A stretch of 64,000 nucleotides of DNA from Eledone cirrhosa (lineage: Eukaryota): NCBI GenBank assembly GCA_964016885.1, contig OZ024764.1, positions 2,914,001-2,978,000 of the forward strand. The letters are read 5' to 3'. Below are positions 5,674 through 41,875 of the stretch, piece after piece (position 1 is the stretch's first letter; each line of letters starts with the position of its first letter). The notes below the pieces were generated by a model. It had not been told where the DNA came from and made no database searches. It was given only the letters and a program-made list of their open reading frames with translations. The translations under genes were made by a program, and so were the position numbers.

Positions 5674-7061
5674 ATTCTTTTGTGAGACATTCTAACCAGA
5701 TGTCTGTAGTATCAGAGCTGTGGTATCTCAATTCAGAGATTCTTTCCTGAGACATTCTAACCACATGTCTGTAGTGTCAGAGCTGTGATCTCTCAATTCA
5801 GAGATTCTTTCCTGAGACGTTCTAACCACGTCTGTAGTAACAGAGCTGTGGACTCTCAATTAGTAGATTCTTTCCTGAGACATTCTAACCACATGTCTGT
5901 AGTATCAGAGCTGTGATCTCTCAATTCAGAGATTCTTTCCTGAGATGTTCTAACCACATGTCTGTAGTATCAGAGCTGTGATCTCTCAATTCAGAGATTC
6001 TTTCCTCAGATATTCTAACCACATGTCTGTAGTATCAGAGCTGTGATCTCTCAATCCAGAGATTCTTTCCTGAGACATTCTAACCACATGTCTGTAGTAT
6101 CAGAGCTGTGATCTCTCAATTCAGAGATACTTCCTGGGACATTCTAAACTCATGTCTGTAGTATCAGAGCTGTGATCTCTCAATTCAGAGATTCTTTCCT
6201 GAGACATTCTAACCACATGTCTGTAGTATCAGAGCTGTGATCTCTCAATTCAGAGATTCTTTCCTGAGACATTCTAACCACATGTCTGTAGTATCAGAGC
6301 TGTGATCTCTCAATTCAGAGATTCTTTCCTCAGACATTCTAACCACATGTCTGTATTATCAGAGCTGTGATCTCTCAATTCAGAGATTCTTTCCTGAGAC
6401 ATTCTAACCACATGTCTGTAGTATCAGAGCTGTGGTCTCTCAATTCAGAGATTCTTACCTGAGACATTCTAACCACTTGTCTGTAGTGTCAGAGCTGTGA
6501 TCTCTCAATTAGTAGATTCTTTCCTGAGACATTCTAACCACATGTCTGTAGTATCAGAGCTGTGATCTCTCAATCCAGAGATTCTTACCTGAGACATTCT
6601 AACCACATGTCTGTAGTATCAGAGCTGTGATCTCTCAATTCAGAGATACTTCCTGGGACATTCTAACCACATGTCTGTAGTATCAGAGCTGTGATCTCTC
6701 AATTCAGAGATACTTCCTGGGACATTCTAACCACATGTCTGTAGTATTAGAGCTGTGATCTCTCAATTCAGAGATTCTTTCCTGGGACATTCTAATCACA
6801 TGTCTGTAGTATCAGAGCTGTGATCTCTCAATTCAGAGATACTTCCTGGGACATTCTAACCAGATGTCCATAGTATCAGAGCTGTGATCTCTCAATTCAG
6901 AGATTCTTTCCTGAGACATTCTAACCACATGTCTGTAGTATCAGAGCTGTGATCTCTCAATTCAGAGATTCTTTCCTGAGACATTCTAACCACATGTCTG
7001 TAGTATCAGAGCTGTGATCTCTCAATCCAGAGATTCTTTCTTGAGACATTCTAATCAGATG
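5674..7061. repeat. 65-bp minisatellite, about 21 copies (left part of array 1)
   Basis: Unit GAGACATTCTAACCACATGTCTGTAGTATCAGAGCTGTGATCTCTCAATTCAGAGATTCTTTCCT. Confidence 0.95.
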
Positions 7062-10000
7062 GGGGTGGATGGAGGCTCCGTAAGCCGTAGAGTAGGCAAC
7101 CCGTCTAGGAGAGCTACCACTCCGAATAAATTGGTGCGGCATAGAGAAGTCCCCTAAGTAAGAGAACTTCCCTAGTGCTGGTGGCATGAATAAAAGTACT
7201 CTGTTCATGCTGTAAAATGGAGGGGTAAAGAGGGCCCTGAGTCCAGTAACACAACCTCTCTAGTGCTGGTGGCACGAATAAAAGCACCCAGTCCATGCTG
7301 TAAAATGGAGAGGTGGATATGGCCCCTGAGTCCAGTAAGACGATCTCTCTAGTACTGGTGCATGAATAAAAGCACCCAGTCCATGCTGTAAAGTGGTGCT
7401 GGTGTTAGGAAGGGCATCCAACCAGTATATATACTACTGCCAAACACTATGAACACAACAAATGAAATTTGCAACAACTGCGTAAACAGCAATAACACTA
7501 ATCATGTTAGGGCTGCGCACGGTAGTGGGGTGGCAGGCGAGGCCATGTGCGAGAACCAAGACTGTTATCAAGCAATCACACAACAGGAAAAAGAACGAGA
7601 CGTAGCATCTCAGAGTTGCCACACTTAATGTTGGCACTCTAAAAGGTAGATCTGGTGAGATAGCGGAGATGCTGGAGAGAAGACATGTGGATGTGTGCTG
7701 TGTGCAAGAGGTGAGATGGAGAGGTGCCTCTGCAAGACTACTCGCAGGCAAACATCTTAGTTATAAGCTTTTCTGGGTGGGTAATGATGATGGGTTAGGT
7801 GGGGTGGGCATATTACTGGCTGAGAGATGGATCGATAAGACAATAGGGGTAGTTAGAGTTAGTAATAGAATAATTAAGCTTAGATTAGTTGTAAGCAAGA
7901 GACTACTGACAATCATCTCTGCCTATGCTCCCCAGGCAGGCCTAGGTAAAGAAGAGAAAGACTGCTTTTACGAGCAACTTTTACAAACAGCCTCAATGAC
8001 AGAGGACGGAGACATCATTATGCTAGCAGGGGACTTCAATGGACATGTTGGACAGCTCCAGGATGGATACACTGGGGTACATGGTGGGCACGGTTACGGC
8101 TCAAGAAATGAAGGAGTGAGGCTACTTGAATTTTTTGATGCAAATGCACTAACCATTTGCAACACTAACTTCCAGAAGCCTACCAACCACCTAATAACCT
8201 ACAAATCAGGCGAGCACATAAGCCAGATTGACTCCCTGCTAGTTAGACAACAAGACAGACAGATGGTGTCAAATACTAAGGCATACCCTGGGGAAGAATG
8301 TACCCCACAGCATAGGTTAGTCGTTAGTGACATCTCAGTAAGCAAGAGAAAGAATGAGACATACAGGAAGGTGTGGAAAAGAAAGGTCTGGAAGCTAAAA
8401 GACCCTTTCATTAAAATATAAATTTAGCAAAGCCCTTCAAGACGTGTATGACAAAAAGGAAGACGATTTAGAGTTGTATGACAGATAATAACTGGAATTT
8501 CTTACGTGACAACTTACTGCAGGCTACTGAAGAAACTTGTAGTTGGGGCAGAGCTTCAACCAGACAGAGAGTGACCTGGTGGTGGAACAGCACGGTAGAT
8601 AGGTCCATTAGAGACAAAAGACTGGCATGGAAGGCTTGGAAAAAGGGTGGGAGTAGAGAAGGATATACAGCTGCTAAGAGAGAAGCTAGACGTCAGGTGT
8701 ACTTAGCACATAGGGAGGCTGAGAGTAGGAGGTTTGCCAATGTTCTGCAACGGGAAGATCAGAGACATGCAGTGTTCCACATTGCAAGGCATTGTGTCAA
8801 TGCAAATCAGGATGTTGTTGGAGATAAGTGTGTCCGGCATGATGCCGGTGTACTTAGTGTCATGAATGATCAGAAAAAGGAGGCCTGGAAATGTCATTAT
8901 GAGAGACTGATGAATGTGGAGAACGAATGGGAGAGAGAGAAATTACCCCCAGTAGACCTAACAGAGGGACCAGCTATTGAGATTGACGAATATAGGGTAC
9001 AAGAAACAATTAAAGAAATGAAGAATGGTAAGGCTGCTGGACCGTCGGGGATAGTTGCTGAGATGCTGAAGGCATCAGGGGACGTAGGCACTAAACTGGT
9101 TGCACGCATCATCAATCAGGCTATATATGGTGGTGTCATACCCAATGACTGGTGCAGCAGTATTCTCATATCATAAATTGCTACAAAGGTAAAAGGGATG
9201 CTCTAGAGAGGAGCAATTATAGGGGCATAAAGCTGATGGATCAGGTTATGAAAGTGGCACAGAGAATATTAGCGCAACTGATTAGAGAAAGGGTCAAACT
9301 AGATGAGATGCAGTTTGGTTTTGTGCCTGGGAAAAGTACAACAGATGCCCTCTTCTTGGTGAGACAATTAGGTAGAAACTAGGTGTAGAGAAATGGCTTG
9401 TGAGGATAGTGCAAGCTATGTACAGGGGTGCTGTCAGTAAAGTGAGAGTAGGTATGGAGTTTAGTGAGGAATTCCAGATACAAGTAGGTGTACATCAGGG
9501 TTCGGTCCTCAGCCTGCTCTTGTTCATTATAGTCCTCCAAGCCATAACAGAGGAGTTTAAGACTGGATGCCCCCGGGAACTTCTCTATGCTGATGATCTG
9601 GTTCTTATAGCAGAATCAGTAGAGGAGCTAGAGAATAAATTCTGGCTCTGGAAATGGCCGTTAGAATCAAGAGGACTGAGAGTGAACCTAGCTAAGACAA
9701 AAGTGTTAATATGTAGAAAAGAAGACAAAACTGTCATTCCATCAGGGAAATGGCCTTGTTCAATATGTAGGAAAGGAACTGGCATAAATTTCATAAAATG
9801 TACTCAATGCAGATCTTGGGTACACGAAAGATAGTGGGATAGCAGGCAAACTAACAGGTAGGGAAAACTACATATACAGTAGATGTACAGGGAAAGTTGG
9901 CAGTAGTAATTGCAGTGATAGACACATTTTTCCAATGCAGGTGGGTTCTATAGAAGTGGTGGGTAGCTTCTGGTACCTTCGTGATCAGATTAGCATGGGA

Positions 10001-10548
10001 GAGGGCGTGGGGTTGTTCCGAGTCCATAGTATCTAGAATAAGGACGGGTTCGAAGAAGTTTAGGGAGCTGCTTCCTTTGTTGACAAAGAAGAGTTTCTCC
10101 ACGTGTAGGAAAGGGCGGTGAGATGTGCCATGCTGCATGGTAGTGAGACATGGGCAGCAACTGCAGAGGATATGCGATGGCTGGAGAGAAATGAAGCAAG
10201 TATGCTCCGTTTGATGTGCAATGTCAGTGTGTGTGAACGACCAAGCATAGACAAGTTGAGAAAGAAACTGGGTATAAGAGGGATAAGTTGTAGTGTGCAG
10301 GAGAGAAGACTGTGATGTACATGGAGGATGACCGCTGGATAAAGAAGAGCCAAGAAATCCCAGCAGAAGGAAGACGCAGTAGAGGTAGACCACGAAAAAC
10401 ATGGGTGGAGGTGGTGAGAGCAGACCTCAGATCGCTGAGACTCACCGAGGAGATGACCGTGACAAGTGGAGAGATGCTGTGCTGAATAGGACCTGTCCAA
10501 CCCTTGCAAGCAGGGAAAAGCAGACGTAAAATGATGATGATGATGATG
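7062..10548 (+). mobile_element. Near-full-length degenerate RTE-clade LINE (family A): APE endonuclease and reverse transcriptase
   Basis: APE motifs TLNVGTL, VQEVRW, SAYAPQ, GDFNGH, SQID, QHRLVV. RT motifs KAAGPSG, NYRGIKL, QFGF, GVHQGSVLS, YADD, VNLAKTK. Cys-rich CSIC..CTQC..WVH segment and (GAT)n tail. Multiple stops and frameshifts. The 5' boundary (7062-7430) may include a separate SINE-like piece. Confidence 0.93.
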
Positions 10549-13500
10549 TCTGTAGTATCGGAACTTGATCTCTCAATTCAGAGATTCTTTCCTGAGACAT
10601 TCTAACCACATGTCTGTAGTATCAGAGCTGTGATCTCTCAATTCAGAGATTCTTTCCTCAGACATTCTAACCACATGTCTGTAGTATCAGAGCTGTGATC
10701 TCTCAATTCAGAGATTCTTTCCTGAGACATTCTAACCACATGTCTGTAGTATCAGAGCTGTGATCTCTCAATCCAGAGATTCTTACCTGAGACATTATAA
10801 CCACATGTCTGTAGTATCAGAGCTGTGGTCTCTCAATTCAGAGATTCTTTCCTGAGACATTCTAACCACATGTCTGTAGTATCAGAGCTGTGATCTCTCA
10901 ATTCAGAGATTCTTTCCTGAGATATTCTAACCACATGTCTGTAGTATCAGAGCTGTGATCTCTCAATCCAGAGATTCTTTCCTGAGACATTCTAACCACA
11001 TGTCTGTAGTATCAGAGCTGTGATCTCTCAATTCAGAGATTCTTTCCTCAGACATTCTAACCACATGTCTGTAGTATCAAATCTGTGATCTCTCAATTCA
11101 GAGATTCTTTCCTCAGACATTCTAACCACATGTCTGTAGTATCAGAGCTGTGATCTCTCAATCCAGAGATTCTTACCTGAGACATTCTAACCACATGTCT
11201 GTAGTATCAGAGCTGTGGTCTCTCAATTCAGAGATTCTTTCCTGAGACATTCTAACCACATGTCTGTAGTATCAGAGCTGTGATCTCTCAATTCAGAGAT
11301 TCTTTCCTCAGACATTCTAACCACATGTCTGTAGTATCAGAGCTGTGATCTCTCAATTCAGAGATTCTTTCCTGAGACATTCTAACCACATGTCTGTAGT
11401 ATCAGAGCTGTGATCTCTCAATTCAGAGATTCTTTCCTCAGACATTCTAACCACATGTCTGTAGTATCAGAACTGTGATCTCTCAATTCAGAGATTCTTT
11501 CCTCAGACATTCTAACCACATGTCTGTAGTATCAGAGCTGTGATCTCTCAATTCAGAGATTCTTTCCTCAGACATTCTAACCGCATGTCTGTAGTATCAG
11601 AGCTGTGATCTCTCAATTCAGAGATTCTTTCCTGAGACATTCTAACCACATGTCTGTAGTATCAGAGCTGTGATCTCTCAATTCAGAGATTCGTTCCTCA
11701 GACATTATAACCACATGTCTGTAGTATCAGAGCTGTGATCTCTCAATTCAGAGATTCTTTCCTGAGACATTCTAACCACATGTCTGTAGTATCAGAGCTG
11801 TGATCTCTCAATTCAGAGATTCTTTCCTGAGACATTCTAACCACATGTCTGTAGTATCAGAGCTGTGATCTCTCAATTCAGAGATTCGTTCCTCAGACAT
11901 TCTAACCACATGTCTGTAGTATCAGAGCTGTGATCTCTCAATTCAGAGATTCGTTCCTCAGACATTCTAACCACATGTCTGTAGTATCAGAGCTGTGATC
12001 TCTCAATTCAGAGATTCTTTCCTGAGACATTCTAACCACATGTCTGTAGTATCAGAGCTGTGATCTCTCAATTCAGAGATTCTTTCCTGAGACATTCTAA
12101 CCACATGTCTGTAGTATCAGAGCTGTGATCTCTCAATTCAGAGATTCGTTCCTCAGACATTCTAACCACATGTCTGTAGTATCAGAGCTGTGATCTCTCA
12201 ATTCAGAGATTCTTTCCTGAGACATTCTAACCACATGTCTGTAGTATCAGAGCTGTGATCTCTCAATTCAGAGATTCTTTCCTGAGACATTCTAACCACA
12301 TGTCTGTAGTATCAGAGCTGTGATCTCTCAATTCAGAGATTCGTTCCTCAGACATTCTAACCACATGTCTGTAGTATCAGAGCTGTGATCTCTCAATTCA
12401 GAGATTCGTTCCTCAGACATTCTAACCACATGTCTGTAGTATCAGAGCTGTGATCTCTCAATTCAGAGATTCTTTCCTGAGACATTCTAACCACATGTCT
12501 GTAGTATCAGAGCTGTGATCTCTCAATTCAGAGATTCTTTCCTGAGACATTCTAACCACATGTCTGTAGTATCAGAGCTGTGATCTCTCAATTCAGAGAT
12601 TCGTTCCTCAGACATTCTAACCACATGTCTGTAGTATCAGAGCTGTGATCTCTCAATTCAGAGATTCTTTCCTCAGACATTCTAACCACATGTCTGTAGT
12701 ATCAGAGCTGTGATCTCTCAATTCAGAGATTCTTTCCTCAGACATTCTAACCGCATGTCTGTAGTATCAGAGCTGTGATCTCTCAATTCAGAGATTCTTT
12801 CCTGAGACATTCTAACCACATGTCTGTAGTATCAGAGCTGTGATCTCTCAATTCAGAGATTCGTTCCTCAGACATTCTAACCACATGTCTGTAGTATCAG
12901 AGCTGTGATCTCTCAATTCAGAGATTCTTTCCTGAGACATTCTAACCACATGTCTGTAGTATCAGAGCTGTGATCTCTCAATTCAGAGATTCTTTCCTGA
13001 GACATTCTAACCACATGTCTGTAGTATCAGAGCTGTGATCTCTCAATTCAGAGATTCGTTCCTCAGACATTCTAACCACATGTCTGTAGTATCAGAGCTG
13101 TGATCTCTCAATTCAGAGATTCTTACCTGAGACATTATAACCACATGTCTGTAGTATCAGAGCTGTGGTCTCTCAATTCAGAGATTCTTTCCTGAGACAT
13201 TCTAACCACATGTCTGTAGTATCAGAGCTGTGATCTCTCAATTCAGAGATTCTTTCCTGAGATATTCTAACCACATGTCTGTAGTATCAGAGCTGTGATC
13301 TCTCAATCCAGAGATTCTTTCCTGAGACATTCTAACCACATGTCTGTAGTATCAGAGCTGTGATCTCTCAATTCAGAGATTCTTTCCTCAGACATTCTAA
13401 CCACATGTCTGTAGTATCAAATCTGTGATCTCTCAATTCAGAGATTCTTTCCTCAGACATTCTAACCACATGTCTGTAGTATCAGAGCTGTGATCTCTCA

Positions 13501-14223
13501 ATCCAGAGATTCTTACCTGAGACATTCTAACCACATGTCTGTAGTATCAGAGCTGTGGTCTCTCAATTCAGAGATTCTTTCCTGAGACATTCTAACCACA
13601 TGTCTGTAGTATCAGAGCTGTGATCTCTCAATTCAGAGATTCTTTCCTCAGACATTCTAACCACATGTCTGTAGTATCAGAGCTGTGATCTCTCAATTCA
13701 GAGATTCTTTCCTGAGACATTCTAACCACATGTCTGTAGTATCAGAGCTGTGATCTCTCAATTCAGAGATTCTTTCCTCAGACATTCTAACCACATGTCT
13801 GTAGTATCAGAACTGTGATCTCTCAATTCAGAGATTCTTTCCTCAGACATTCTAACCACATGTCTGTAGTATCAGAGCTGTGATCTCTCAATTCAGAGAT
13901 TCTTTCCTGAGACATTCTAACCGCATGTCTGTAGTATCAGAGCTGTGATCTCTCAATTCAGAGATTCGTTCCTCAGACATTCTAACCACATGTCTGTAGT
14001 ATCAGAGCTGTGATCTCTCAATTCAGAGATTCGTTCCTCAGACATTCTAACCACATGTCTGTAGTATCAGAGCTGTGATCTCTCAATTCAGAGATTCTTT
14101 CCTGAGACATTCTAACCACATGTCTGTAGTATCAGAGCTGTGATCTCTCAATTCAGAGATTCTTTCCTCAGACATTCTAACCACATGTCTGTAGTATCAG
14201 AGCTGTGATCTCACAATTCAGAG
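10549..14223. repeat. 65-bp minisatellite, about 56 copies (right part of array 1)
   Basis: Same unit, resuming in register after the LINE tail. Confidence 0.95.
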
Positions 14224-14458
14224 AAGTAGCAACTCTACTTGAAGTGGCTCTCTGATCTATGCACTTTATCGAGTAATGTTACTGCAAAGACGCTCTGGCG
14301 TAACCCAATTTCAGCCGCTTGTATTCGTGGTTGTATTCTTTCTGTCATTACCGAAGATTCATGGCCATAGGTAAGGGTTGGTATGAAAACCGAAGAAGAA
14401 GCCCTCCTCCACCAGCCTATTTTATTTGTTTTCTAATTTTATTCCTGTCTACTTTCAG

Positions 14459-14606
14459 GACTGCTGCTGATTATTACGATGTTGTGAGCACCCCTATTGA
14501 TCTCTTAAAGATTCAACAGAAACTGAAAACCGATGAATATGATGAACTGGAACAGTTTGCTGCAGATATTGAACTGATGGTGAGCAACACCAAGGCTTAC
14601 TACAGA
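14459..14606 (+). CDS. PBRM1: Polybromo-1 (BAF180) internal exon, bromodomain 1
   Basis: Polypyrimidine tract and TTTCAG acceptor (AG 14457-14458), GTAAGT donor at 14607. Translates (R)TAADYYDVVSTPIDLLKIQQKLKTDEYDELEQFAADIELMVSNTKAYYR, matching the PBRM1 BD1 pattern DYYEVVSQPIDLMKIQQKLK as I recall it. Confidence 0.93.
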
Positions 14607-16370
14607 GTAAGTAGTGTATTTCCATCTCTCTGGTGTTACAGAGGATTAACTGTTGTTTAGCCCTAGGTCAACAACACTGATCCTTACTATAGAGTATGTA
14701 CTCTCTCTCTGGTATTACAGAGGATTAACTGTTGTTTAACCCTAGGTCAACAACACAGCTTTACTATAGAGTATGTAGTCTCTCTCTCTCTGGTATTACA
14801 GAGGATTAACTGTTGTTTAACCCTAGGTCAACAACACAGCTTTACTATAGAGTATGTAGTCTCTCTCTCTGGTATTACAGAGGATTAACTGTTGTTTAAC
14901 CCTAGGCCAACAACACTGAGCCTTACTATAGAGTATGTAGTCTCTCTGGTATTACAGAGGATTAACTGTTGTTTAGCCCTAGGCCAACAATACTGAGCCT
15001 TACTATAGAGTATATAGTCTCTCTCTCTGGTATTACAGAGGATTAACTGTTGTTTAACCCTAGGTCAACAACACTGAGCCTTACTGTAGAGTATGTAGTC
15101 TCTCTCTCTGGTATTACAGAGGATTAACTGTTGTTTAGCCCTAGGTCAACAACACTGATCCTTACTATAGAGTATGTACTCTCTCTCTGGTGTTACAGAG
15201 GATTAACTGTTGTTTAACCCTAGGTCAACAACACAGCTTTACTATAGAGTATGTAGTCTCTCTCTCTGGTATTACAGAGGATTAACTGTTGTTTAGCCCT
15301 AGGTCAACAATACTGAGCCTTACTATAGAGTATGTAGTCTCTCTGGTATTACAGAGGATTAACTGTTGTTTAACCCTAGGCCAATAACACTGAGCCTTAC
15401 TATAGAGTATATAGTCTCTCTCTCTGGTATTACAGAGGATTAACTGTTGTTTAGCCCTAGGTCAACAATACTGAGCCTTACTATAGAGTATGTAGTCTCT
15501 TTCTGGTATTACAGAGGATTAACTGTTTAGCCCTAGGCCAACAATACTGAGCCTTACTATAGAGTATATAGTCTCTCTCTCTGGTATTACAGAGGATTAA
15601 CTGTTGTTTAGCCCTAGGTCAACAATACTGAGCTTAACTATAGAGTATATAGTCTCTCTCTCTGGTGTTACAGAGGATTAACTGTTGTTTAACCCTAGGT
15701 CAACAATAATAAGCCTTACTATAGAGCAGGCATGTCTAACTGAGGGTCCCCCATGTGTTGTCTGATGGCCACACATAACAACTATTTTTTCAAATTGTAT
15801 ATTAGAAAGTTAAAACATGCTCGCGCTGTAAAAACCTTCGTGTGGGATGCAGGTGTGCCTGTAAAGGGCCACATGTTTGATATGCCTGTTCTAGAGTATG
15901 TAGTATCTCTCTCACTCTCTGGTAATACAGAGGGCTGGAGAGTTAACTTGTTTAACCCTAGGTCAACAGACAGCCTTACTATAGAGTAACTAGTGTCTAT
16001 CTCTCCTTCATCTCCCTCTGTCTTTGGTAATACAGAGGGCTGGAGGGTTAACTGTTGTTTAACCCTAGGTCAACAGACAGCCTTACTATAGAGTAACTAG
16101 TGTCTATCTCTCCCTCATCTCCCTCTGTCTTTGGTAATACAGAGGGTTGGAGGGTTAACTGTTGTTTAACCCTAGGTCAACAGACAGCCTTACTATAGAG
16201 TAACTAGTGTCTCTCTCTCCCTCATCTCCCTCTGTCCTTGGTAATACAGAGGGCAGGAGGGTTAACTGTTGTTATGTTGTTATTTAGCCCTGAGTCAACA
16301 ATACTGAGCCTTATTAAAGAGTCTCTCTTTGATATTACAGAGGGCTGGAGGGTTAACTTGTTGGTGTTTA
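14585..16370 (+). repeat. ~80-bp tandem repeat (about 14 copies, then diverged ~107-bp copies) whose unit spans the exon donor junction
   Basis: Exon end CAACACCAAGGCTTACTACAGA|GTAAGT is echoed as CAACACTGAGCCTTACTATAGA|GTATGT in the units. Confidence 0.88.
15727..15888. mobile_element. hAT-like MITE inserted in the donor-spanning repeat
   Basis: CAGGCATGTC...GATATGCCTG termini, imperfect 8-bp TSD CTATAGAG/TTCTAGAG, homologous to 30627-30828. Confidence 0.8.
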
Positions 16371-16384
16371 GTCCTACTGAGTGT

Positions 16385-16647
16385 ATGTTTGAGACCGTGT
16401 GTAAGGGAAGGCAGGTCTTCTGTATAGAGCCAAAGATCTCGAACCTGTGTCATTATCTTTGAGAGGTGCAAGTGTGCAAGGTCAGCCTTTATCACCTTGT
16501 CCCAGGACTTTCTGGGACTTCTTACTCCATAGCTTCCATATATTTTGATCACCCTGAACCATATATGCATCACATGACTATACTAACCCAATCTCCTCCC
16601 TAGTAAACTGTGGCTGACTCCTCTTTAGCCATACCTATCACATGACC
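16385..16647 (-). mobile_element. RTE-like LINE family C 3' fragment
   Basis: Minus strand SLLGRRLG*YSHVMHIW...PRKSWDKVIKADL. A related piece lies at ~2153-2265 (+). Confidence 0.7.
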
Positions 16648-18240
16648 ATCATCATCATCGTTTAACGTCCATCTTCCACGCTAGTATGGGTTAGACGGTT
16701 TTGTTCCATTTGATGCATGAATGGTCAGGAGACCGTGTCTTGCTCGTACGGAAGTGTCTCTGGCAGGTTTTTTACAGCTGGATGCCCTTCCGAACACCAA
16801 CTACATTTACCATGTGGACTGGGAGTCTTTTTACCGTGTCTCCTACATGACCACCTTACAGTGTGGACTGGGAGCCTTTTTACCATGTCTCCTACATGAC
16901 CACCTTACAGTGTGGACTGGGAGCCTTTTTACCATGTCTCCTACATGACCACCTTACAGTGTGGACTGGGAGCCTTTTTACCATGTCTCCTACATGACCA
17001 CTTTACAGTGTGGACTGGGAGCCTTTTTACCATGTCTCCTACATAACCTCTTTACATTGTGGACCGGGAGCCTTTTTACTGTGTCTCCTACATGACCACC
17101 TTACAGTGTGGACTGGGAGCCTTTTTACTGTGTCTCCTACATGACCACTTTACAGTGTGGACTGGGAGCCTTTTTACTGTGTTACCTACATGACCACTTT
17201 ACAGTGTGGACTGGGAGCCTTTTTACTGTGTTACCTACATGACCACTTTACAGTGTGGACTGGGAGCCTTTTTACCGTGTTACCTACACGACTACATTAC
17301 AGCGTGGACTGGGAGCCTTTTTACTGTGTCTCCTACATGACCACTTTACAGTGTGGACTAGGAGCCTTTTTACTGTGTTACCTACACGACTACATTACAG
17401 TGTGGACTGGGAGCTTTTTTACTGTGTCTCCTACATGACCACTTTACAGTGTGGACTGGGAGCCTTTTTACTGTGTTACCTACATGACCACTTTACAGTG
17501 TGGACTGGGAGCCTTTTTACTGTGTTACCTACATGACCACTTTACAGTGTGGACTGGGAGCCTTTTTACCATGTCTCCTACATGACCACTTTACAGTGTG
17601 GACTGGGAGCCTTTTTACCATGTCTCCTACATGACCACTTTACAGTGTGGACTGGGAGCCTTTTACTGTGTCTCCTACATAACCTCTTTATAGTGTGGAC
17701 TGGGAGCCTTTTTACTGTGTCTCCTACATGACTACCTTACAGTGTGGACTGGGAGCCGAGCCTTTTTACTGTCTCCTACATAACCTCTTTACAGTGTGGA
17801 CTGGGAGCCTTTTTACTGTGTCTCCTACATAACCACTTTACAGTGTGGACTGGGAGCCTTTTTACCATGTCTCCTACATGACCACTTTACAGTGTGGACT
17901 TGGAGCCTTTTTACCATGTCTCCTACATGACCACTTTACAGTGTGGACTGGGAGCCTTTTTACTGTGTCTCCTACATGACCACTTTACAGTGTGGACTGG
18001 GAGTCTTTTTACTGTGTCCTCTACATGACCACTCTACAGTGTGGACTGGGGGCCTTTTTACTGTGTCTCCTACATGACTATTTTACAGTGTGGACTGGGA
18101 GCCTTTTTACTGTGTCCCCTACATGGCCACTTTACAGTGTGGACTGGGATCCTTTTTACCGTGTCTTCTACACAACCACTTTACAGTGTGGACTGTTGTG
18201 TCATCGACATAGTGGACGGAACGGAACAGAAATGGGAGGA
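16648..18240 (-). mobile_element. SINE-like element containing a 49-bp array
   Basis: (CAT)n tail, flanked on both sides by ATGACCAT (16642-16649 and 18240-18247). Confidence 0.75.
16806..18195. repeat. ~49-bp minisatellite, about 28 copies
   Basis: Unit TTTACAGTGTGGACTGGGAGCCTTTTTACTGTGTCTCCTACATGACCAC. Confidence 0.93.
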
Positions 18241-18241
18241 T

Positions 18242-21200
18242 GACCATGCCAATGTAATCTCCTCCCTAGTAAACTGTCTGACCCCTATTATACCATACCA
18301 ATGTAATCTCCCTAGTAAACTGTCTGACCCCTATTATACCATACCAATGTAATCTCCCTAGTAAACTGTCTGACCCCTATTATACCATACCAATGTAATC
18401 TCCTCCCTAGTAAACTGTCTGACCCCCTATTATACCATACCAATGTAATCTCTTCCCTAGTAAACTGTCTGACCCCTATTATATCATACCTATGTAATCT
18501 CCTCCCTAGTAAACTGTCTGACCCTCTATTATACCATACCTATGTAATCTCCTCCCTAGTAAACTGTCTCACCCTCTATTATACTATACCTATGTAATCT
18601 CCTCCCTAGTAAACTGTCTGACCCCTATTATACCATACCAATGTAATCTCCTCCCTAGTAAACTGTCTGACCCCCTATTATACCATACCAATGTAATCTC
18701 TTCCCTAGTAAACTGTCTGACCCCTATTATATCATACCTATGTAATCTCCTCCCTAGTAAACTGTCTGACCCTCTATTATACCATACCTATGTAATCTCC
18801 CTAGTAAACTGTCTGACCTCTATTATACCATACCTATGTAATCTCCTCCCTAGTAAACTGTCTGACCCCCTATTATACCATACCTATGTAATCTCCTCCC
18901 TAGTAAACTGTCTGACCCCCTATTATACCATACCAATGTAATCTCCCTAGTAAACTGTCTGACCCCTATTATACCATACCAATGTAATCTCCTCCCTAGT
19001 AAACTGTCTGACCCCCTATTATACCATACCAATGTAATCTCCTCCCTAGTAAACTGTCTGACCCTCTATTATACCATACCTATGTAATCTCCTCCCTAGT
19101 AAACTGTCTGACCCCCTATTATACCATACCTATGTAATCTCCTCCCTAGTAAACTGTCTGACCCCCTATTATACCATACCTATGTAATCTCCTCCCTAGT
19201 AAACTGTCTGACCTCTATTATACCATACCTATGTAATCTCCTCCCTAGTAAACTGTCTGACCCCCTATTATACCATACCTATGTAATCTCCTCCCTAGTA
19301 AACTGTATGACCCCTATTATACCATACCAATGTAATCTCCTCCCTAGTAAACTGTCTGACCCCTATTATACCATACCTATGTAATCTCCTCCCTGGTAAA
19401 CTGTCTGACCCCTATTATACCATACCTATGTAATCTCCTCCCTAGTAAACTGTCTGACCCCCTATTATACCATACCTATGTAATCTCCTCCCTAGTAAAC
19501 TGTCTGACCCCTATTATACCATACCTATGTAATCTCCTCCCTAGTAAACTGTCTGACCTCTATTATACCATACCTATGTAATCTCCTCCCTAGTAAACTG
19601 TCTGACCCCCTATTATACCATACCTATGTAATCTCCCTAGTAAACTGTCTGACCCTCTATTATACCATACCTATGTAATCTCCTCCTTAGTAAACTGTCT
19701 GACCCCTAGTAAACTGTCTCACCCTCTATTATACCATACCTATGTAATCTCCTCCCTAGTAAACTGTCTGACCCCTATTATACCATACCTATGTAATCTC
19801 CTCCCTAGTAAACTGTCTGACCCCCTATTATACCATACCTATGTAATCTCCTCCCTAGTAAACTGTCTGACCCTCTATTATACCATACCTATGTAATCTC
19901 CTCCCTAGTAAACTGTCTGACCCCCTATTATACCAAACCTATGTAATCTCCTCCCTAGTAAACTGTCTGACCTCTATTATACCATACCTATGTAATCTCC
20001 TCCCTAGTAAACTGTCTGACCTCTATTATACCATACCTATGTAATCCCCTCCCTAGTAAACTGTCTGACCTCTATTATACCATACCTATGTAATCTCCTC
20101 CCTAGTAAACTGCCTGACCCCTAGTAGACTGTCTGACCCCTATTATACCATACCAATGTAATCTCCTCCCTAGTAAACTGTCTGACCTCTATTATACCAT
20201 ACCTATCTAATCTCCTCCCTAGTAAACTGTCTGACCACTATTATACCATACCTATGTAATCCCCTCCCTAGTAAACTGTCTGACCCCCTATTATACCATA
20301 CCTATGTAATCTCCTCCCTAGTAAACTGTCTGACCCCCTATTATACCATACCTATGTAATCTCCTCCCTAGTAAACTGTCTGACCCTCTATTATACCAAA
20401 CCTATGTAATCTCCTCCCTAGTAAACTGTCTGACCCCCTATTATACCATACCTATGTAATCTCCTCCCTAGTAAACTGTCTGACCCCCTATTATACCATA
20501 CCTATGTAATCTCCTCCCTAGTAAACTGTCTGACCCCTAGTAAACTGTCTGACCCTCTATTATACCAAACCTATGTAATCTCCTCCCTAGTAAACTGTCT
20601 GACCCCTAGTAAACTGTCTGACCCCCTATTATACCATACCTATGTAATCTCCTCCCTAGTAAACTGTCTGACCCCCTATTATACCATACCAATGTAATCT
20701 CCTCCCTAGTAAACTGTCTGACCCCTAGTAAACTGTCTGACCCTCTATTATACCAAACCCATGTAATCTCCTCCCTAGTAAACTGTCTGACCCCTAGTAA
20801 ACTGTCTGACCCCCTATTATACCATACCTATGTAATCTCCTCCCTAGTAAACTGTCTGACCCCTAGTAAACTGTCTGACCCCCTATTATACCATACCTAT
20901 GTAATCTCCTCCCTAGTAAACTGTCTGACCCCTAGTAAACTGTCTGACCCCCTATTATACCATACCTATGTAATCTCCTCCCTAGTAAACTGTCTGACCC
21001 CTAGTAAACTGTCTGACCCCCTATTATACCATACCTATGTAATCTCCTCCCTAGTAAACTGTCTGACCCCCTATTATACCATACCTATGTAATCTCCTCC
21101 CTAGTAAACTGTCTGACCCCTAGTAAACTGTCTGACCCTCTATTATACCAAACCTATGTAATCTCCTCCCTAGTAAACTGTCTGACCCCTAGTAAACTGT

Positions 21201-24200
21201 CTGACCCCCTATTATACCATACCTATGTAATCTCCTCCCTAGTAAACTGTCTGACCCCCTATTATACCATACCTATGTAATCTCCTCCCTAGTAAACTGT
21301 CTGACTCCCTATTATACCATACCTATGTAATCTCCTCCCTAGTAAACTGTCTGACCCCCTATTATACCATACCTATGTAATCTCCTCCCTAGTAAACTGT
21401 CTGACCCCCTATTATACCATACCTATGTAATCTCCTCCCTAGTAAACTGTCTGACCCCCTATTATACCATACCTATGTAATCTCCCCCCTAGTAAACTGT
21501 CTGACCCCCTATTATACCATACCTATGTAATCTCCTCCCTAGTAAACTGTCTGACCCTCTATTATACCAAACCTATGTAATCTCCTCCCTAGTAAACTGT
21601 CTGACCCCTAGTAAACTGTCTGACCCCCTATTATACCATACCTATGTAATCTCCTCCCTAGTAAACTGTCTGACCCCCTATTATACCATACCTATGTAAT
21701 CTCCTCCCTAGTAAACTGTCTGACCCCTAGTAAACTGTCTGACCCTCTATTATACCAAACCTATGTAATCTCCTCCCTAGTAAACTGTCTGACCCCTAGT
21801 AAACTGTCTGACCCCCTATTATACCATACCTATGTAATCTCCTCCCTAGTAAACTGTCTGACCCCTAGTAAACTGTCTGACCCCCTATTATACCATACCT
21901 ATGTAATCTCCTCCCTAGTAAACTGTCTGACCCCTAGTAAACTGTCTGGCCCCCTATTATACCATACCTATGTAATCTCCTCCCTAGTAAACTGTCTGAC
22001 CCCCTATTATACCATACCTATGTAATCTCCTCCCTAGTAAACTGTCTGACCCCTAGTAAACTGTCTGACCCCCTATTATACCATACCTATGTAATCTCCT
22101 CCCTAGTAAACTGTCTGACCCCCTATTATACCATACCTATGTAATCTCCTCCCTAGTAAACTGTCTGACCCCTAGTAAACTGTCTGACCCTCTATTATAC
22201 CAAACCTATGTAATCTCCTCCCTAGTAAACTGTCTGACCCCTAGTAAACTGTCTGACCCCCTATTATACCATACCTATGTAATCTCCTCCCTAGTAAACT
22301 GTCTGACCCCTAGTAAACTGTCTGACCCCCTATTATACCATACCTATGTAATCTCCTCCCTAGTAAACTGTCTGACCCCTAGTAAACTGTCTGACCCCCT
22401 ATTATACCATACCTATGTAATCTCCTCCCTAGTAAACTGTCTGACCCCTAGTAAACTGTCTGACCCCCTATTATACCATACCTATGTAATCTCCTCCCTA
22501 GTAAACTGTCTGACCCCTAGTAAACTGTCTGGCCCCCTATTATACCATACCTATGTAATCTCCTCCCTAGTAAACTGTCTGACCCCCTATTATACCATAC
22601 CTATGTAATCTCCTCCCTAGTAAACTGTCTGACCCCTAGTAAACTGTCTGACCCCCTATTATACCATACCTATGTAATCTCCTCCCTAGTAAACTGTCTG
22701 ACCCCCTATTATACCATACCTATGTAATCTCCTCCCTAGTAAACTGTCTGACCCCTAGTAAACTGTCTGACCCTCTATTATACCAAACCTATGTAATCTC
22801 CTCCCTAGTAAACTGTCTGACCCCTAGTAAACTGTCTGACCCCCTATTATACCATACCTATGTAATCTCCTCCCTAGTAAACTGTCTGACCCCTAGTAAA
22901 CTGTCTGGCCCCCTATTATACCATACCTATGTAATCTCCTCCCTAGTAAACTGTCTGACCCTCTATTATACCAAACCTATGTAATCTCCTCCCTAGTAAA
23001 CTGTCTGACCCCTAGTAAACTGTCTGACCCCCTATTATACCATACCTATGTAATCTCCTCCCTAGTAAACTGTCTGACCCCCTATTATACCATACCTATG
23101 TAATCTCCTCCCTAGTAAACTGTCTGACTCCCTATTATACCATACCTATGTAATCTCCTCCCTAGTAAACTGTCTGACCCCCTATTATACCATACCTATG
23201 TAATCTCCCCCCTAGTAAACTGTCTGACCCCCTATTATACCATACCTATGTAATCTCCTCCCTAGTAAACTGTCTGACCCCTAGTAAACTGTCTGACCCC
23301 CTCTTATACCATACCTATGTAATCTCCTCCCTAGTAAACTGTCTGACCCCCTATTATACCATACCTATGTAATCTCCTCCCTAGTAAACTGTCTGACCCC
23401 CTATTATACCATACCTATGTAATCTCCTCCCTAGTAAACTGTCTGACCCCCTATTATACCATACCTATGTAATCTCCCCCCTAGTAAACTGTCTGACCCC
23501 CTATTATACCATACCTATGTAATCTCCTCCCTAGTAAACTGTCTGACCCTCTATTATACCATACCTATGTAATCTCCTCCCTAGTAAACTGTCTGACCCT
23601 CTATTATACCATACCTATGTAATCTCCTCCCTAGTAAACTGTCTGACCCCTAGTAAACTGTCTGACCCCCTCTTATACCATACCAATGTAATCTCCTCCC
23701 TAGTAAACTGTCTGACCCCTAGTAAACTGTCTGACCCCCTATTATACCATACCTATGTAATCTCCTCCCTAGTAAACTGTCTGACCCCCTATTATACCAT
23801 ACCTATGTAATCTCCTCCCTAGTAAACTGTCTGACCCTCTATTATACCATACCTATGTAATCTCCTCCCTAGTAAACTGTCTGACCCCCTCTTATACCAT
23901 ACCAATGTAATCTCCTCCCTAGTAAACTGTCTGACCCCTAGTAAACTGTCTGACCCCCTATTATACCATACCTATGTAATCTCCTCCCTAGTAAACTGTC
24001 TGACCCCCTATTATACCATACCTATGTAATCTCCTCCCTAGTAAACTGTCTGACCCCCTATTATACCATACCTATGTAATCTCCCCCCTAGTAAACTGTC
24101 TGACCCCCTATTATACCATACCTATGTAATCTCCTCCCTAGTAAACTGTCTGACCCTCTATTATACCATACCTATGTAATCTCCTCCCTAGTAAACTGTC

Positions 24201-26432
24201 TGACCCTCTATTATACCATACCTATGTAATCTCCTCCCTAGTAAACTGTCTGACCCCTAGTAAACTGTCTGACCCCCTCTTATACCATACCTATGTAATC
24301 TCCTCCCTAGTAAACTGTCTGACCCCTAGTAAACTGTCTGACCCCCTATTATACCATACCTATGTAATCTCCTCCCTAGTAAACTGTCTGACCCCCTATT
24401 ATACCATACCTATGTAATCTCCTCCCTAGTAAACTGTCTGACCCCTAGTAAACTGTCTGACCCCCTATTATACCATACCTATGTAATCTCCTCCCTAGTA
24501 AACTGTCTGACCCCTAGTAAACTGTCTGACCCCCTATTATACCATACCTATGTAATCTCCTCCCTAGTAAACTGTCTGACCCCTAGTAAACTGTCTGGCC
24601 CCCTATTATACCATACCTATGTAATCTCCTCCCTAGTAAACTGTCTGACCCCCTATTATACCATACCTATGTAATCTCCTCCCTAGTAAACTGTCTGACC
24701 CCTAGTAAACTGTCTGACCCCCTATTATACCATACCTATGTAATCTCCTCCCTAGTAAACTGTCTGACCCCCTATTATACCATACCTATGTAATCTCCTC
24801 CCTAGTAAACTGTCTGACCCCTAGTAAACTGTCTGACCCTCTATTATACCAAACCTATGTAATCTCCTCCCTAGTAAACTGTCTGACCCCTAGTAAACTG
24901 TCTGACCCCCTATTATACCATACCTATGTAATCTCCTCCCTAGTAAACTGTCTGACCCCTAGTAAACTGTCTGGCCCCCTATTATACCATACCTATGTAA
25001 TCTCCTCCCTAGTAAACTGTCTGACCCTCTATTATACCAAACCTATGTAATCTCCTCCCTAGTAAACTGTCTGACCCCTAGTAAACTGTCTGACCCCCTA
25101 TTATACCATACCTATGTAATCTCCTCCCTAGTAAACTGTCTGACCCCCTATTATACCATACCTATGTAATCTCCTCCCTAGTAAACTGTCTGACTCCCTA
25201 TTATACCATACCTATGTAATCTCCTCCCTAGTAAACTGTCTGACCCCCTATTATACCATACCTATGTAATCTCCCCCCTAGTAAACTGTCTGACCCCCTA
25301 TTATACCATACCTATGTAATCTCCTCCCTAGTAAACTGTCTGACCCCTAGTAAACTGTCTGACCCCCTCTTATACCATACCTATGTAATCTCCTCCCTAG
25401 TAAACTGTCTGACCCCCTATTATACCATACCTATGTAATCTCCTCCCTAGTAAACTGTCTGACCCCCTATTATACCATACCTATGTAATCTCCTCCCTAG
25501 TAAACTGTCTGACCCCCTATTATACCATACCTATGTAATCTCCCCCCTAGTAAACTGTCTGACCCCCTATTATACCATACCTATGTAATCTCCTCCCTAG
25601 TAAACTGTCTGACCCTCTATTATACCATACCTATGTAATCTCCTCCCTAGTAAACTGTCTGACCCTCTATTATACCATACCTATGTAATCTCCTCCCTAG
25701 TAAACTGTCTGACCCCTAGTAAACTGTCTGACCCCCTCTTATACCATACCAATGTAATCTCCTCCCTAGTAAACTGTCTGACCCCTAGTAAACTGTCTGA
25801 CCCCCTATTATACCATACCTATGTAATCTCCTCCCTAGTAAACTGTCTGACCCCCTATTATACCATACCTATGTAATCTCCTCCCTAGTAAACTGTCTGA
25901 CCCTCTATTATACCATACCTATGTAATCTCCTCCCTAGTAAACTGTCTGACCCCTAGTAAACTGTCTGACCCCCTCTTATACCATACCAATGTAATCTCC
26001 TCCCTAGTAAACTGTCTGACCCCTAGTATACTGTCTGACCCCCTATTATACCATACCTATGTAATCTCCTCCCTAGTAAACTGTCTGACCCCCTATTATA
26101 CCATACCTATGTAATCTCCTCCCTAGTAAACTGTCTGACCCCCTATTATACCATACCTATGTAATCTCCCCCCTAGTAAACTGTCTGACCCCCTATTATA
26201 CCATACCTATGTAATCTCCTCCCTAGTAAACTGTCTGACCCTCTATTATACCATACCTATGTAATCTCCTCCCTAGTAAACTGTCTGACCCCTAGTAAAC
26301 TGTCTGACCCCCTCTTATACCATACCTATGTAATCTCCTCCCTAGTAAACTGTCTGACCCCTAGTAAACTGTCTGACCCCCTATTATACCATACCTATGT
26401 AATCTCCTCCCTAGTAAACTGTCTGACCCCCC
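18242..26432. repeat. 50-bp minisatellite with 69-bp variants (internal 19-bp duplication), ~8.2 kb
   Basis: Unit CTATTATACCATACCTATGTAATCTCCTCCCTAGTAAACTGTCTGACCCC. Minus strand reads SLLGRRLHWYG. Confidence 0.95.
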
Positions 26433-26498
26433 CGCCCGCTCCTCTGACCCCTAATTCCTCTCCCAGTACACTCACCCTTTCCTGCTCTCTATTTGCAG

Positions 26499-27449
26499 AA
26501 GAGCTCTCAGGAGTACAAGGACGCCTGCGATCTCTGGCAAATCTTCCAGGCAACGAGGAACGAGTTGATATCGGAGGTGTTTGGGGAGCCCCTCCCTCCT
26601 CCCGCTGCCGCGTCCCTCACCCCAGGGGCCGGCTCCTCTGGTGTCTCTACTGTGACAGCAGTGATGCAGCAGAGTGCACCACCACCACCGCCGCAGCCAC
26701 ACCACCAACACCAACAACAGCAGCAGCCAACCATCAGCTGCGCGGAGGCTGCCGCGGCTGCTGCCACTGCTGCAGTTGCTGCAGCAGCTGCTGAGTCTGC
26801 TGCCGCCGCAGCCGCCGCCGCCGCTGCTGCTGCGGCGGGCAACCCCGCCGCCTCCTCCGTGCCATCTGGTGGAGGCTTGACCCCCGGGCCGGAGCGCAGG
26901 CGGAGTGCCAGAAAGAACCAGATGGACGGTGGTGGTGGTGGTGGTGTAGGGACAGTCGTGGCGATGGGAGGAGGGGGAAGTGGCGGCGTGCATGCCCCCC
27001 AGCCCCACCGGGCCACCACCGCCGCCGCCGTCTCTGCTGCTGGTGGTGGTGGTGGTGGTGGTGGCGGCGGCGGTGGTGGTGGTGATGAAATGGACGACAT
27101 GGAAGACGAGGACGACGATGACGATGACGAGACCTCGAAGGACGGCGTCTCCCTTCCGTCCATGGCCCTCTCGTCGACGGCGGGGCCCTCCTCGGCGCAC
27201 CACCAGCAGCAGCAGCAGCAGCAGCAGCACCAACACCACCACCACCATCACCACCACCACATGCGGGCTGCTGCTTCCGGTACCCCCAACACCACCTCCG
27301 CTGGTAACACTCCCGTCGGTTCGTCGGAGCACGTGATGCTCTCCAGCGAGGATGCGATGGAGATCAACCAGCTCTACACGGCCATCATTACCGCGAAGGA
27401 CGGAGATCGAGACATTAGCGAAGTCTTCCAGCGACTCCCGCCGAGATCT
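26499..27449 (+). CDS. PBRM1: Polybromo-1 internal exon: end of BD1, low-complexity linker, start of BD2
   Basis: TTTGCAG acceptor, GTGAGT donor at 27450, 951 nt, phase 0-0. Begins KSSQEYKDACDLWQIFQATRNE (continues BD1 in frame) and ends RDISEVFQRLPPRS (BD2 ZA loop). Confidence 0.9.
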
Positions 27450-30626: not shown

Positions 30627-30828
30627 CAGGCATGTCAAATTGAGGGTCTCCCAAGAACCACATGGGTCACTTATGTGTTGTCTGAGGGCCACACATAACA
30701 ACTAATTGCACACATTACAACTAATTTTTTAAATTTTATGTTAAAAAGATTTAAAATGTTTTGCACTGTAAAAACCTTTGTGTGGGCCGCAGATGTGCCT
30801 GTAAAGCGCCGCATGTTTGACATGCCTG
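30627..30828. mobile_element. hAT-family MITE
   Basis: Perfect 13-bp TIR CAGGCATGTCAAA/TTTGACATGCCTG and perfect 8-bp TSD CTGTATGG. Confidence 0.92.
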
Positions 30829-31102: not shown

Positions 31103-31499
31103 TTAAATCACCGAAGACACCTCCGAGATATACCTTGGAGGAGGCCTGCTAAACCTGCATAGGTGTCACAACAACAACAATAGCCCTTCTAGAACTGGTG
31201 CCCCCCCAAAATGCATCATGTAAGGTGTTTGGTGTGAGGAAGTGGGCCCTGTCATAGAAACCTTGGCAAAAAACAGGGTTGAGGAGGCCATTTCAGTCGT
31301 GACACCACAGGCCCTCTTATGCTGGTGCCATGATAAAACACACCCAGTACTTTCTGTAAGGTGGTTGGTATTAGGAAGAGCTCCCTGTTGTAGAAACCAA
31401 GTTGTTGCCATGACAGTCAAGAGGGTTTTTCACTCATGACACAATGACCTCTCTAGTTCAAGGGCCACGAAAAATGCATTGAGTGTGTTCCGCTCTGTG

Positions 31500-31953
31500 A
31501 GTTATTGACTGCAGATATATTTGTATTTCTGGCTAGAAGTACCCACTCCTTTCCTCAGTCAGTAGTTGACTGTACCTGTTGCCAGAAGTACCTGCCCTCT
31601 CCTCTCTGTGTGATCGACTGCACATATACTTCCACCTGTTGCCAGAAGTACCTACTCCCCCTCCTCTCTCATTAGTTAATTCCACATATACTTCCGTCTG
31701 CCACCAGAAGTACTGGCCCATTCTCTCTGAGTGGTTAACTCCACATATACAACTGCCTGTTGCCAGAAGTACCCAACCCCTCCTCTCTGATTAGTTAACT
31801 CCACATATACTTGAGTCTATTGCCAGAAGTACCCACCCTCTCCTCTCTCATTAGTTAACTCCACATATACTTGAGTCTATTGCCAGAAGTACCCACCCTC
31901 TCCTCTCTGACCAGTCGACTGCACATATGTTTGTGTTTATTGCCAGAAGTACC
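31500..31953 (+). repeat. ~60-bp tandem repeat, 8 copies, spanning the exon acceptor junction
   Basis: YAG|AAGTAC with the G of AG at 31536, 31585, 31645, 31707, 31766, 31826, 31886 and 31946 (true site). Confidence 0.88.
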
Positions 31954-32114
31954 CGAAATACTATGAGATCATCAAAGAGCCAATTGATCTGAAGTTGATA
32001 GCTCAACGAATACAGGAATCCTATTACCCAAATGTCACCATGCTTGAGAAGGACCTGTTGCTCATGATAAAGAATGCCAAAACCTTCAACGAACCCCGTT
32101 CGCAAGTATACAGG
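31947..32114 (+). CDS. PBRM1: Polybromo-1 internal exon, bromodomain 2
   Basis: TGCCAG acceptor, GTAAGT donor at 32115, 168 nt. My translation (not in the ORF track): KYPKYYEIIKEPIDLKLIAQRIQESYYPNVTMLEKDLLLMIKNAKTFNEPRSQVYR, with the PBRM1 BD2 hallmarks IIKEPIDLK.IAQRIQ and KNAKT.NEP.SQV. Confidence 0.93.
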
Positions 32115-32445: not shown

Positions 32446-33939
32446 CCCTTTCGCATTTACATTACTCTATATATACTATTGTATTTTCACAGTAAAGGCT
32501 TTACCTCACATAATATCTCACATAACATTTACATTACTCTATATATACTATTGTATTGTCACAGTAAAGGCTTTACCTCACATAATATCTCACATAACAT
32601 TTACATTACTCTATATATACTATTGTATTGTCACAGTAAAGGCTTTACCTCACATAATACCTCACATAGCATTTACATTACTCTATATATACTATTGTAT
32701 TTTCACAGTAAAGGCTTTACCTCACATAATACCTCACATAACTTTTACATTACTCTATATATACTATTGTATTTTCATGGTAAAGGCTTTACTTCACATA
32801 ATATCTCACATAACATTTACTACTCTACATATACTATTGTATTTTCATGGTAAAGGCTTTACCTCACATAATACCTCACATAACATTTACATTACTCTAT
32901 ATATACTATTGTATTTTCATGGTAAAGGCTTTACCTCACATAATATCTCACATAACATTTACATTACTCTATATATACTATTGTATTTTCACAGTAAAGG
33001 CTTTACCTCACATAATACCTCACATAACATTTACATTACTCTATATATACTATTGTATTTTCATGGTAAAGGCTTTACCTCACATAATATCTCACATAAC
33101 ATTTACATTACTCTATATATACTATTGTATTGTCACAGTAAAGGCTTTACCTCACATAATATAGAATCTATGAAATTTTGATGTTATTTATTTTGAGAAC
33201 AATACCTTAACATCAGTATGAGTAGTCGGTTATGGCCAGTTTAAACAGAAAGAGGTTAGAGAATTCTGGTCACATATAGCTTGTTTAAATGCTAAAGGGT
33301 TAAACTGGCCAGAATTCTCTCACCTTTTTCTGTTCAAATTGGTCGTAACTGGCTGCTCATACTGATGTTAAGGTATTGTTCTCAAAATGTCATAGATTCG
33401 ATATTATATGAGGTAAAGCTTTTACTGTGAAAATTCAATAGTATATGTAGAGTAATGTAAATGTTATGTGAGGTAAAGCCTTTACTGTGAAAATACAATA
33501 GTATATATAGAGTAATGTAAATGTTATGTGAGGTAAAGACTTTACTGTGAAAATACAATAGTATATATAGAGTAATGTAAATGTTATGTGAGATATTATG
33601 TGAGGTAAAGCCTTTACTGTGAAAATACAATAGTATATATAGAGTAATGTAAATGTTATGTGAGGTGAAGCCTTTACTGTGAAAATACAATAGTATATAT
33701 AGAGTAATGTAAATGTTATGTGGGATATTATGTGAGGTAAAGCCTTTACTGTGAAAATACAATAGTATATATAGAGTAATGTAAATGTTATGTGGGATAT
33801 TATGTGAGGTAAAGCCTTTACTGTGAAAATACAATAGTATATATAGAGTAATGTAAATGTTATGTGGGATATTATGTGAGGTAAAGCCTTTATTACAAAA
33901 ATACAATAGTATATATAGAGTAATGTAAATGCGAAAGGG
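32446..33939. mobile_element. Inverted dimer of a piggyBac-like (TTAA) MITE with internal 60/71-bp minisatellites
   Basis: TTAA-CCCTTTCGCATTTAC ... GTAAATGCGAAAGGG-TTAA, with an internal terminus GCTAAAGGG-TTAA at 33291-33303. The two arrays are in opposite orientation. Confidence 0.82.
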
Positions 33940-41500: not shown

Positions 41501-41875
41501 TTCTTTCCTCAGACATTCTAACCACATGTCTGTAGTATCAGAGCTGTGATCTCTCAATTCAGAGATTCTTTCCTGGGACATTCTAACCACATGTCTGTAG
41601 TATCAGAGCTGTGATCTCTCAGTTCAAAGAAGTAGTGGCTCTTCCTGGAGTGACTCTCTGATCTCTGAGCTCTGTTGTGTAACGTTACGCTAACGACACT
41701 TCAGAGAAAGCCCATTTCATCCGCTTGTATTCACAATCATATTCTTTCATTCATTATCCAAGATTCATGACCATTGCTAAGGGTTGGCATTAATAGCGAA
41801 TTGAAGATAGCGAGTTTGGCTTTTACACTTAACTCTCATTATTGAACACTGAAGCTAACACATTACTGCAGTTGT
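35535..41875 (-). mobile_element. LINE family B fragment, copy 2, with a ~90-copy 65-bp array (35714-41628)
   Basis: Same flanks as copy 1 (TTCACCCACTTATTCCTGAGAGGGTC on the left; AGAAGTAG...CCGCTTGTATTC...AAGATTCATGACCA on the right). Confidence 0.88.

Follow-up and report, generated by a model that had tools for sequence, protein, structure and literature searches.

Why does the 5' splice site of a conserved coding exon stand at the head of a long array of its own copies, and do these copies serve any purpose? The question arises in a stretch of 64,000 nucleotides from Eledone cirrhosa (contig OZ024764.1, positions 2,914,001 to 2,978,000; the window), which contains three exons of PBRM1, here called A, B and C, as located by tblastn with three cephalopod proteins as queries. 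All positions given are those of the window, and the exons and arrays are described on its forward strand. Exon A (14459..14606) encodes part of bromodomain 1 and is supported by protein similarity, tblastn and an RNA-like contig, X21, described below. Its 49 codons (14460-14606) have polybromo-1 bromodomain 1 as their best PDB match and are 96% identical to PBRM1 of Octopus sinensis and Acanthosepion pharaonis. Exon B (26499..27449, tblastn) carries the end of bromodomain 1, a low-complexity linker, and the start of bromodomain 2, and is closer to the Octopus protein than to the cuttlefish protein. Its low-complexity insert (poly-Ala, -Gly, -Gln, -His, and -Asp) is far larger than that of the cuttlefish and also larger than that of Octopus sinensis. 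Exon C (tblastn), which belongs to bromodomain 2, ends at 32114 and has a NAGNAG acceptor at 31944-31949 (CAG/AAG), where either start, 31947 or 31950, keeps the frame; the K-containing RSKYP and the K-less RSYP forms are both present among the cephalopod homologues of this exon. Spliced together, the three exons give an open frame matching cephalopod PBRM1, and no further PBRM1 exons were found within the window 5' of A or 3' of C. The intron that follows exon A is 11.9 kb long, with its last base at 26498.

The array is a minisatellite of 81- and 107-bp units that runs from 14579 to ~16375, beginning 28 nt within exon A, and its unit covers the border between exon A and the intron, as in a boundary minisatellite. 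The 87-nt seed unit (14579..14665) comprises 28 exon bases, the true donor, and 59 intron bases. A first-pass annotation of this DNA had placed the seed of the unit on the PBRM1 exon donor, with the true site TACAGA|GTAAGT and its G at 14607, and our analysis agrees (AGA|GTAAGT, 14607..14612). The annotation was right that the unit includes the end of the exon, but the share that it gave, about 20 nt, is slightly short; the exon part spans ~28 nt (14579-14606), 21 of which are identical in all four units checked. Downstream, 17 GT copies of the donor, hereafter decoys, lie between 14694 and 16200 (10 GTATGT, 4 GTATAT, and 3 GTAACT), in line with the approximate count, the three motifs and the first position proposed earlier. 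The sequence TATAGA, which had been given for the bases ahead of the decoys, precedes 15 of the 17, while TGTAGA is found at 15091 and TCTAGA at 15896. A MITE interrupts an 18th donor copy, at 15726, which has GC in place of GT, so that 17 of 18 copies keep GT; a further, degenerate copy (the 19th) lies at 16321.

The copies fall into two sub-lineages. Sub-array 1 (14666..15726) is made of 76-81-bp units and holds 13 GT copies (9 GTATGT and 4 GTATAT) together with the MITE-split copy. The segment from 15889 to 16375 holds one post-MITE copy (GTATGT at 15896), the 107-bp sub-array 2 (GTAACT at 15986, 16093, and 16200), and a degenerate tail. Among 16 aligned units, a set that leaves out the unit holding the MITE and the degenerate units at the end of the array, identity was 90-100% within sub-array 1 and 82-88% between the two sub-arrays, and the seed copy was 82-88% identical to the units of sub-array 1 and 79-88% identical to all other units. 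The inner units are homogenised and the boundary unit is left out, which is the concerted evolution of the repeats known as mirages; the seed copy stands first in the array and has drifted away from the inner copies. The MITE (15727..15888, 162 bp, no strand assigned) has terminal inverted repeats and sits within donor copy 14, behind its G, with an 8-bp target duplication of which 6 positions match and GC at its left edge. It may be hAT-like. A second copy at 30627-30828 has a perfect 8-bp target duplication. The two sub-lineages and the MITE insertion are a record of ordinary array turnover.

The relation of the decoys to the true junction is not due to chance. When 37 nt across the junction were compared ungapped with each decoy, 13 of 17 matched at 26-29 positions and the post-MITE copy at 17; a 2-nt deletion limited the other three to 23. 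Elsewhere in the window, no site matched at more than 22 positions on the forward or 24 on the reverse strand. The donor-array unit itself was not found elsewhere in the window.

Evidence on donor use came from four sequencing runs that carry the locus, available as assembled contigs of unrecorded kind from two samples of one study, which we examined over 14230-14760. X21, a contig of 710 nt at a depth of ~12, matches 14457-14606 with 0 differences and departs from the genome at either end. Read by eye, the translation of its upstream loose end gives the residues that precede exon A in homologues, and X21 was therefore taken as RNA. This sole RNA-like contig over exon A leaves the genome at the true donor (14606), which thus appears to be the site used. 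The RNA-like evidence comprises one run of contigs, and contigs lose rare and NMD-degraded forms. The X21 bins 14608-14643 and 14680-14715, at the intron start and the first decoy, had no contig cover, which we do not count as absence. Pieces at ~14644-14679 and 14716-14751, whose loose ends fall at 14673 and 14730 and thus not at a decoy donor, fit a dispersed repeat.

We compared donor strength by in-register U1 duplex energy, a crude score that ignores U5/U6 and has no mollusc training. The true donor gave -7.2 kcal/mol, and the other two true donors -7.4 and -11.4 kcal/mol. Values for the decoys were -3.2 to -3.4 kcal/mol for GTATGT, -1.5 kcal/mol for GTAACT, and -0.7 kcal/mol for GTATAT, and all 17 differ from the true donor at +4 and/or +5. 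Nowhere else in the intron did a GT reach the value of the true donor, neither among the 17 decoys nor among the 805 remaining GT sites. The first decoy was equalled or beaten by 49 of these 805 sites and by 698 of 4321 GT sites in the window, a background that includes the two other true donors. Folding of 14560-14860 was unremarkable (z -1.76), with a small hairpin across the true donor.

If splicing did reach a decoy, the product would be truncated. A TAG at 14658..14660 lies in frame ahead of every decoy and is the first stop in 17 of 17 decoy-spliced products, so that the earlier claim of a premature stop upon any decoy use holds. An in-frame stop within 87 nt was also present in 85% of 20000 shuffles and in 809 of 1094 intronic 87-nt windows (74-85%). 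The stop is thus expected by chance and needs no selection. For 15 decoy units, parsimony on their tree counted 4 changes in the donor motif (-3..+6) versus 3.0 expected (P 0.36), and the probability of fewer changes than expected was 0.81, indicating no conservation of the donor copies beyond neutral.

Taken as a whole, the data make it quite probable that the donor array is a near-neutral boundary minisatellite, a mirage in which a local duplication has been tolerated. It would have begun as an 87-bp duplication across the exon/intron border, by slippage or unequal exchange, probably mediated by a short microhomology that the exon shared with a repeat fragment lying 87 nt further 3'. The array copies encode V-N-N-T-E-P-Y-Y-R, and exon A encodes V-S-N-T-K-A-Y-Y-R. 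Of 58 homologues examined, 51 fit the pattern and 7 do not; N occupies the V-x-N position in 47 of the 51, and in four of four cephalopod records. We suggest that up to 7 bp of microhomology between the ancestral exon and a dispersed-repeat fragment may have seeded the duplication. A stretch at 14650..14670 is common to a dispersed repeat family, a short match that gives moderate evidence. Its 3' end is the unit junction, where other contigs that share the stretch diverge, and this points to a dispersed repeat fragment.

The later expansion would resemble that of many other arrays of this genome. Tandem arrays occupy 51% of the window, and in the intron between exons A and B their share is 95%, so array birth appears to be common; since this intron collapses to only 783 bp, an array born in it had reasonable odds of extending across a junction. 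Exon definition and first-site selection, aided by the stronger U1 match, would commit splicing to the true donor, and the array may be tolerated because the first and strongest donor wins. Any rare use of a decoy would presumably be cleared by NMD, as noise and not as regulation. Weighing against this near-neutral reading are the narrow RNA-like evidence, the crudeness of the U1 score, the use of pseudo-sites in CBS and IFI6, the weakening at +4/+5, and two observations described below, the conservation of an acceptor core and a tendency of arrays to lie nearer to exons than random placement would put them (P 0.03 with the index array left out).

The weakening at +4/+5 could instead reflect a selective filter, in which the array was able to grow only once the donor copies had weakened and changes at +4/+5 were favoured. 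We consider this unlikely, though it fares best among the alternatives. Each sub-array carries a separate weakening, +4 A>T in one and +5 G>C in the other, and +5 G>A is present in four copies as well. Having no -1G, the true site depends on +4/+5, as in the NN//GURAG class described in the excerpted text of PMC11732430. In a window of +3..+6, which was picked post hoc, there were 4 changes versus 1.26 expected (P 0.04); over +1..+6 the same 4 changes compare with 1.95 expected (P 0.13). GT is nonetheless retained in 17 of 18 copies. On the exon side, both sub-arrays depart from the true copy in the same way, so that a copy not yet weakened was probably still present and had been duplicated before the changes arose. 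F7, according to excerpts of PMC1557585, tolerates 4-8 identical copies. The first-pass annotation had proposed that expansion followed only after the +4 A>T change, and this is contradicted by the 107-bp sub-array, which grew with +4A intact and changed +5 instead. In a looser form, in which any weakening came first, the idea keeps the weak hint of the post hoc test over +3..+6 and loses it over +1..+6.

A second boundary minisatellite, of ~60-bp units, lies at exon C (31488..31958), where the acceptor has been copied seven times upstream. The AGs of these decoys end before 31537, 31586, 31646, 31708, 31767, 31827, and 31887, the true site being the last copy. AG is kept in all seven copies, use of any of the seven leads to a premature stop, and the tract of the true acceptor is the richest in T (11 T versus 6-10 in 20 nt). 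Identity among the seven aligned units is 63-81%, apart from one pair at 96%, and all seven share an invariant CCAG|AAGTAC, which at 10 columns out of 60 is the longest run (shuffle P 0.0002). Across -4..+3, six decoys showed 0 changes versus 5.0 expected (P 0.007), and adding the most distal copy gave 1 change (CAG to TAG) versus 6.7 expected (P 0.009). These values concern a motif that was first noticed by eye and was also used to locate the units, although their spacing indicates that none was skipped inside the array, and the background may be inflated by misalignment or CpG decay. The acceptor core thus appears to have been held more than neutrality predicts (P 0.007-0.009), an anomaly for a near-neutral array. 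A frozen master copy was considered and set aside; by rough reasoning it would at most halve the expected changes, and the anomaly remains.

Arrays may also be enriched at junctions in this window. Of 19 arrays merged by hand, two cover a junction versus 0.25 expected (P 0.025, or 0.18 minus the index array), and conditioning on the two short collapsed introns gave P 0.12 and 0.25. Four arrays lie at most 200 nt from an exon edge (P 0.011, or 0.033 without the index array). As the thresholds were chosen after looking, we regard this enrichment as suggestive only.

The two arrays at PBRM1 junctions invite a broader proposal, that boundary minisatellites are frequent in octopods and that some have been selected as NMD-coupled sites, with PBRM1 dose set by array length and U6 m6A; we find this improbable. 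In that reading PBRM1 would carry two such repeats, an acceptor array in which the CAG|AAG core stays constant as the remainder of the unit drifts, and a donor array in which +4U copies replace the +4A true site when U6 m6A is low. Regulated decoy use, or its occurrence genome-wide, would provide a fast-evolving route to gene-dose control if true, and it finds no support here.

A more restricted possibility, and one that strikes us as quite improbable, is poison splicing, in which copy number or cell state sets decoy use and the resulting NMD transcripts tune PBRM1. One example would be a reduction of U6 m6A that shifts use from +4A to +4U sites. Excerpts of PMC11732430 describe such a +4A/+4U shift upon loss of U6 m6A in METTL16 mutants, and it agrees with the +4A of the true site and the +4U and +5G of the 10 GTATGT copies. 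Premature stops in the products of 17 of 17 donor and seven of seven acceptor decoys would suit this scheme, as would the over-conserved acceptor core, and tandem repeats alter splicing in humans (PMC10078293). Against it, the RNA-like contig uses the true donor, the stop in decoy products is expected by chance, and the decoys lack a strong exon-side AG. The donor decoys are conserved no more than background, and one has been split by the MITE. The earlier suggestion that copy number could tune PBRM1 dosage accordingly finds no backing in the RNA-like contig, the weak U1 pairing of the decoys, or the chance expectation for the stop, and in most published cases the first site alone is used; minor use of decoys may still occur, as some pseudo-sites are used in CBS and IFI6.

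That the donor array is an assembly artefact or the product of a wrong gene model is barely credible: arrays are hard to assemble and the DNA-like runs represent one sample that is possibly the assembly's own source, but the array has stable unit variants (also displayed by the DNA-like runs), the MITE and two sub-lineages, its tandem back-joint (14729 back to 14654) is present in contigs of three of three DNA-like runs, a 321-nt contig covers 14334-14654 with 0 differences in two of the three, and the three exons join in an open frame like that of cephalopod PBRM1.

The near-neutral reading has precedents, which are compared here as far as the excerpts of the cited papers describe them. In intron 7 of F7, a 37-bp VNTR contains pseudo-donors identical to the true site that are silent through first-site selection, and only the first site is used in LMNB2 and in PDGF intron 4, with an 81-bp unit in 16-18 copies (Borensztajn et al. 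2006, PMC1557585). In IFI6 (a gene also named 6-16) and CBS intron 13, two pseudo-sites are used as well (PMC1557585); the CBS unit spans the exon end and +7 (PMC2630376). Similar to this group, the first PBRM1 unit straddles the border of exon and intron, further copies of the donor follow downstream and the RNA-like contig uses the first site, and in unit size and copy number the array is close to PDGF intron 4. Unlike the identical copies of F7, all 17 octopus decoys differ from the true site at +4 or +5, which makes PBRM1 a weaker test of scanning than F7. The PBRM1 array also differs from the F7 group in its host, a mollusc and not a mammal, and in its two sub-lineages and MITE.

The amphioxus mirages occur on both types of boundary, in Adh3, the globins BflGb6 and BflGb9, TnC, and PGBD5, and combine concerted evolution and length instability with normal splicing (PMC3087553, PMC3902484). 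Here too, donor and acceptor boundaries are both duplicated and splice signals are kept in many copies. As in PMC3087553, the boundary unit is excluded from homogenisation (seed copy 82-88% versus 90-100% for inner units). The PBRM1 array, at 17-18 copies, has more repeats than that of BflGb6 (3-6 copies), and unlike in amphioxus, donor and acceptor arrays occur in one gene stretch and the host is a cephalopod. The over-conserved acceptor core has no counterpart in the excerpted mirage descriptions (PMC3087553, PMC3902484). Splicing-associated human repeats (PMC10078293) and ITR-driven intron changes (PMC2812944) likewise lie near splice junctions and can alter splicing; the excerpts of these two sources give measured links between length and splicing, whereas the PBRM1 array is known here from sequence. 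As the single transcript uses the original signal, like the human and amphioxus repeats, we regard the array as a known oddity and not as demonstrated dosage control. A literature search that covered few subscription papers found no report of a boundary minisatellite in a cephalopod or of genome-wide junction enrichment. The locus extends mirages to cephalopods, and with donor and acceptor arrays together in a single conserved chromatin gene it provides a natural test of first-site selection in an invertebrate with long introns.

It also illustrates the growth of a short intron (~0.8 kb with arrays collapsed) to 11.9 kb. Besides the donor array, the 95% of this intron occupied by arrays consists of a 49-bp array (16806-18195) and an unrelated 50/69/119-bp array of 8 kb (18243..26431). 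The latter was considered as a copy of the branch-point region of exon B, an origin that we rejected since 337 of 2000 resampled sequences scored equally well. A copy of its 50-bp unit at 16590 is cut off from the main array by an insertion bearing the 49-bp array (16590-18243); the insertion grew this array in turn, a nested array history. A locus-specific 53-bp array at 27632-30354 begins 182 nt past the exon B donor and is unlike the junction. Elsewhere in the window, a 65-bp unit forms five arrays in one orientation (5674-7061, 10546-14224, 35714-41630, 56997-57650, and 61033-62405) and reads as a dispersed or element-borne satellite. A decayed LINE-like element at 7600-10540 has endonuclease and reverse-transcriptase-like motifs by eye, and the 80-bp arrays at 1-1788 and 52964-53368 correspond to the 3' part of this element. 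Finally, two 60/72-bp arrays within 32454-33931 form a large inverted pair, with a third copy at 55634-56017.
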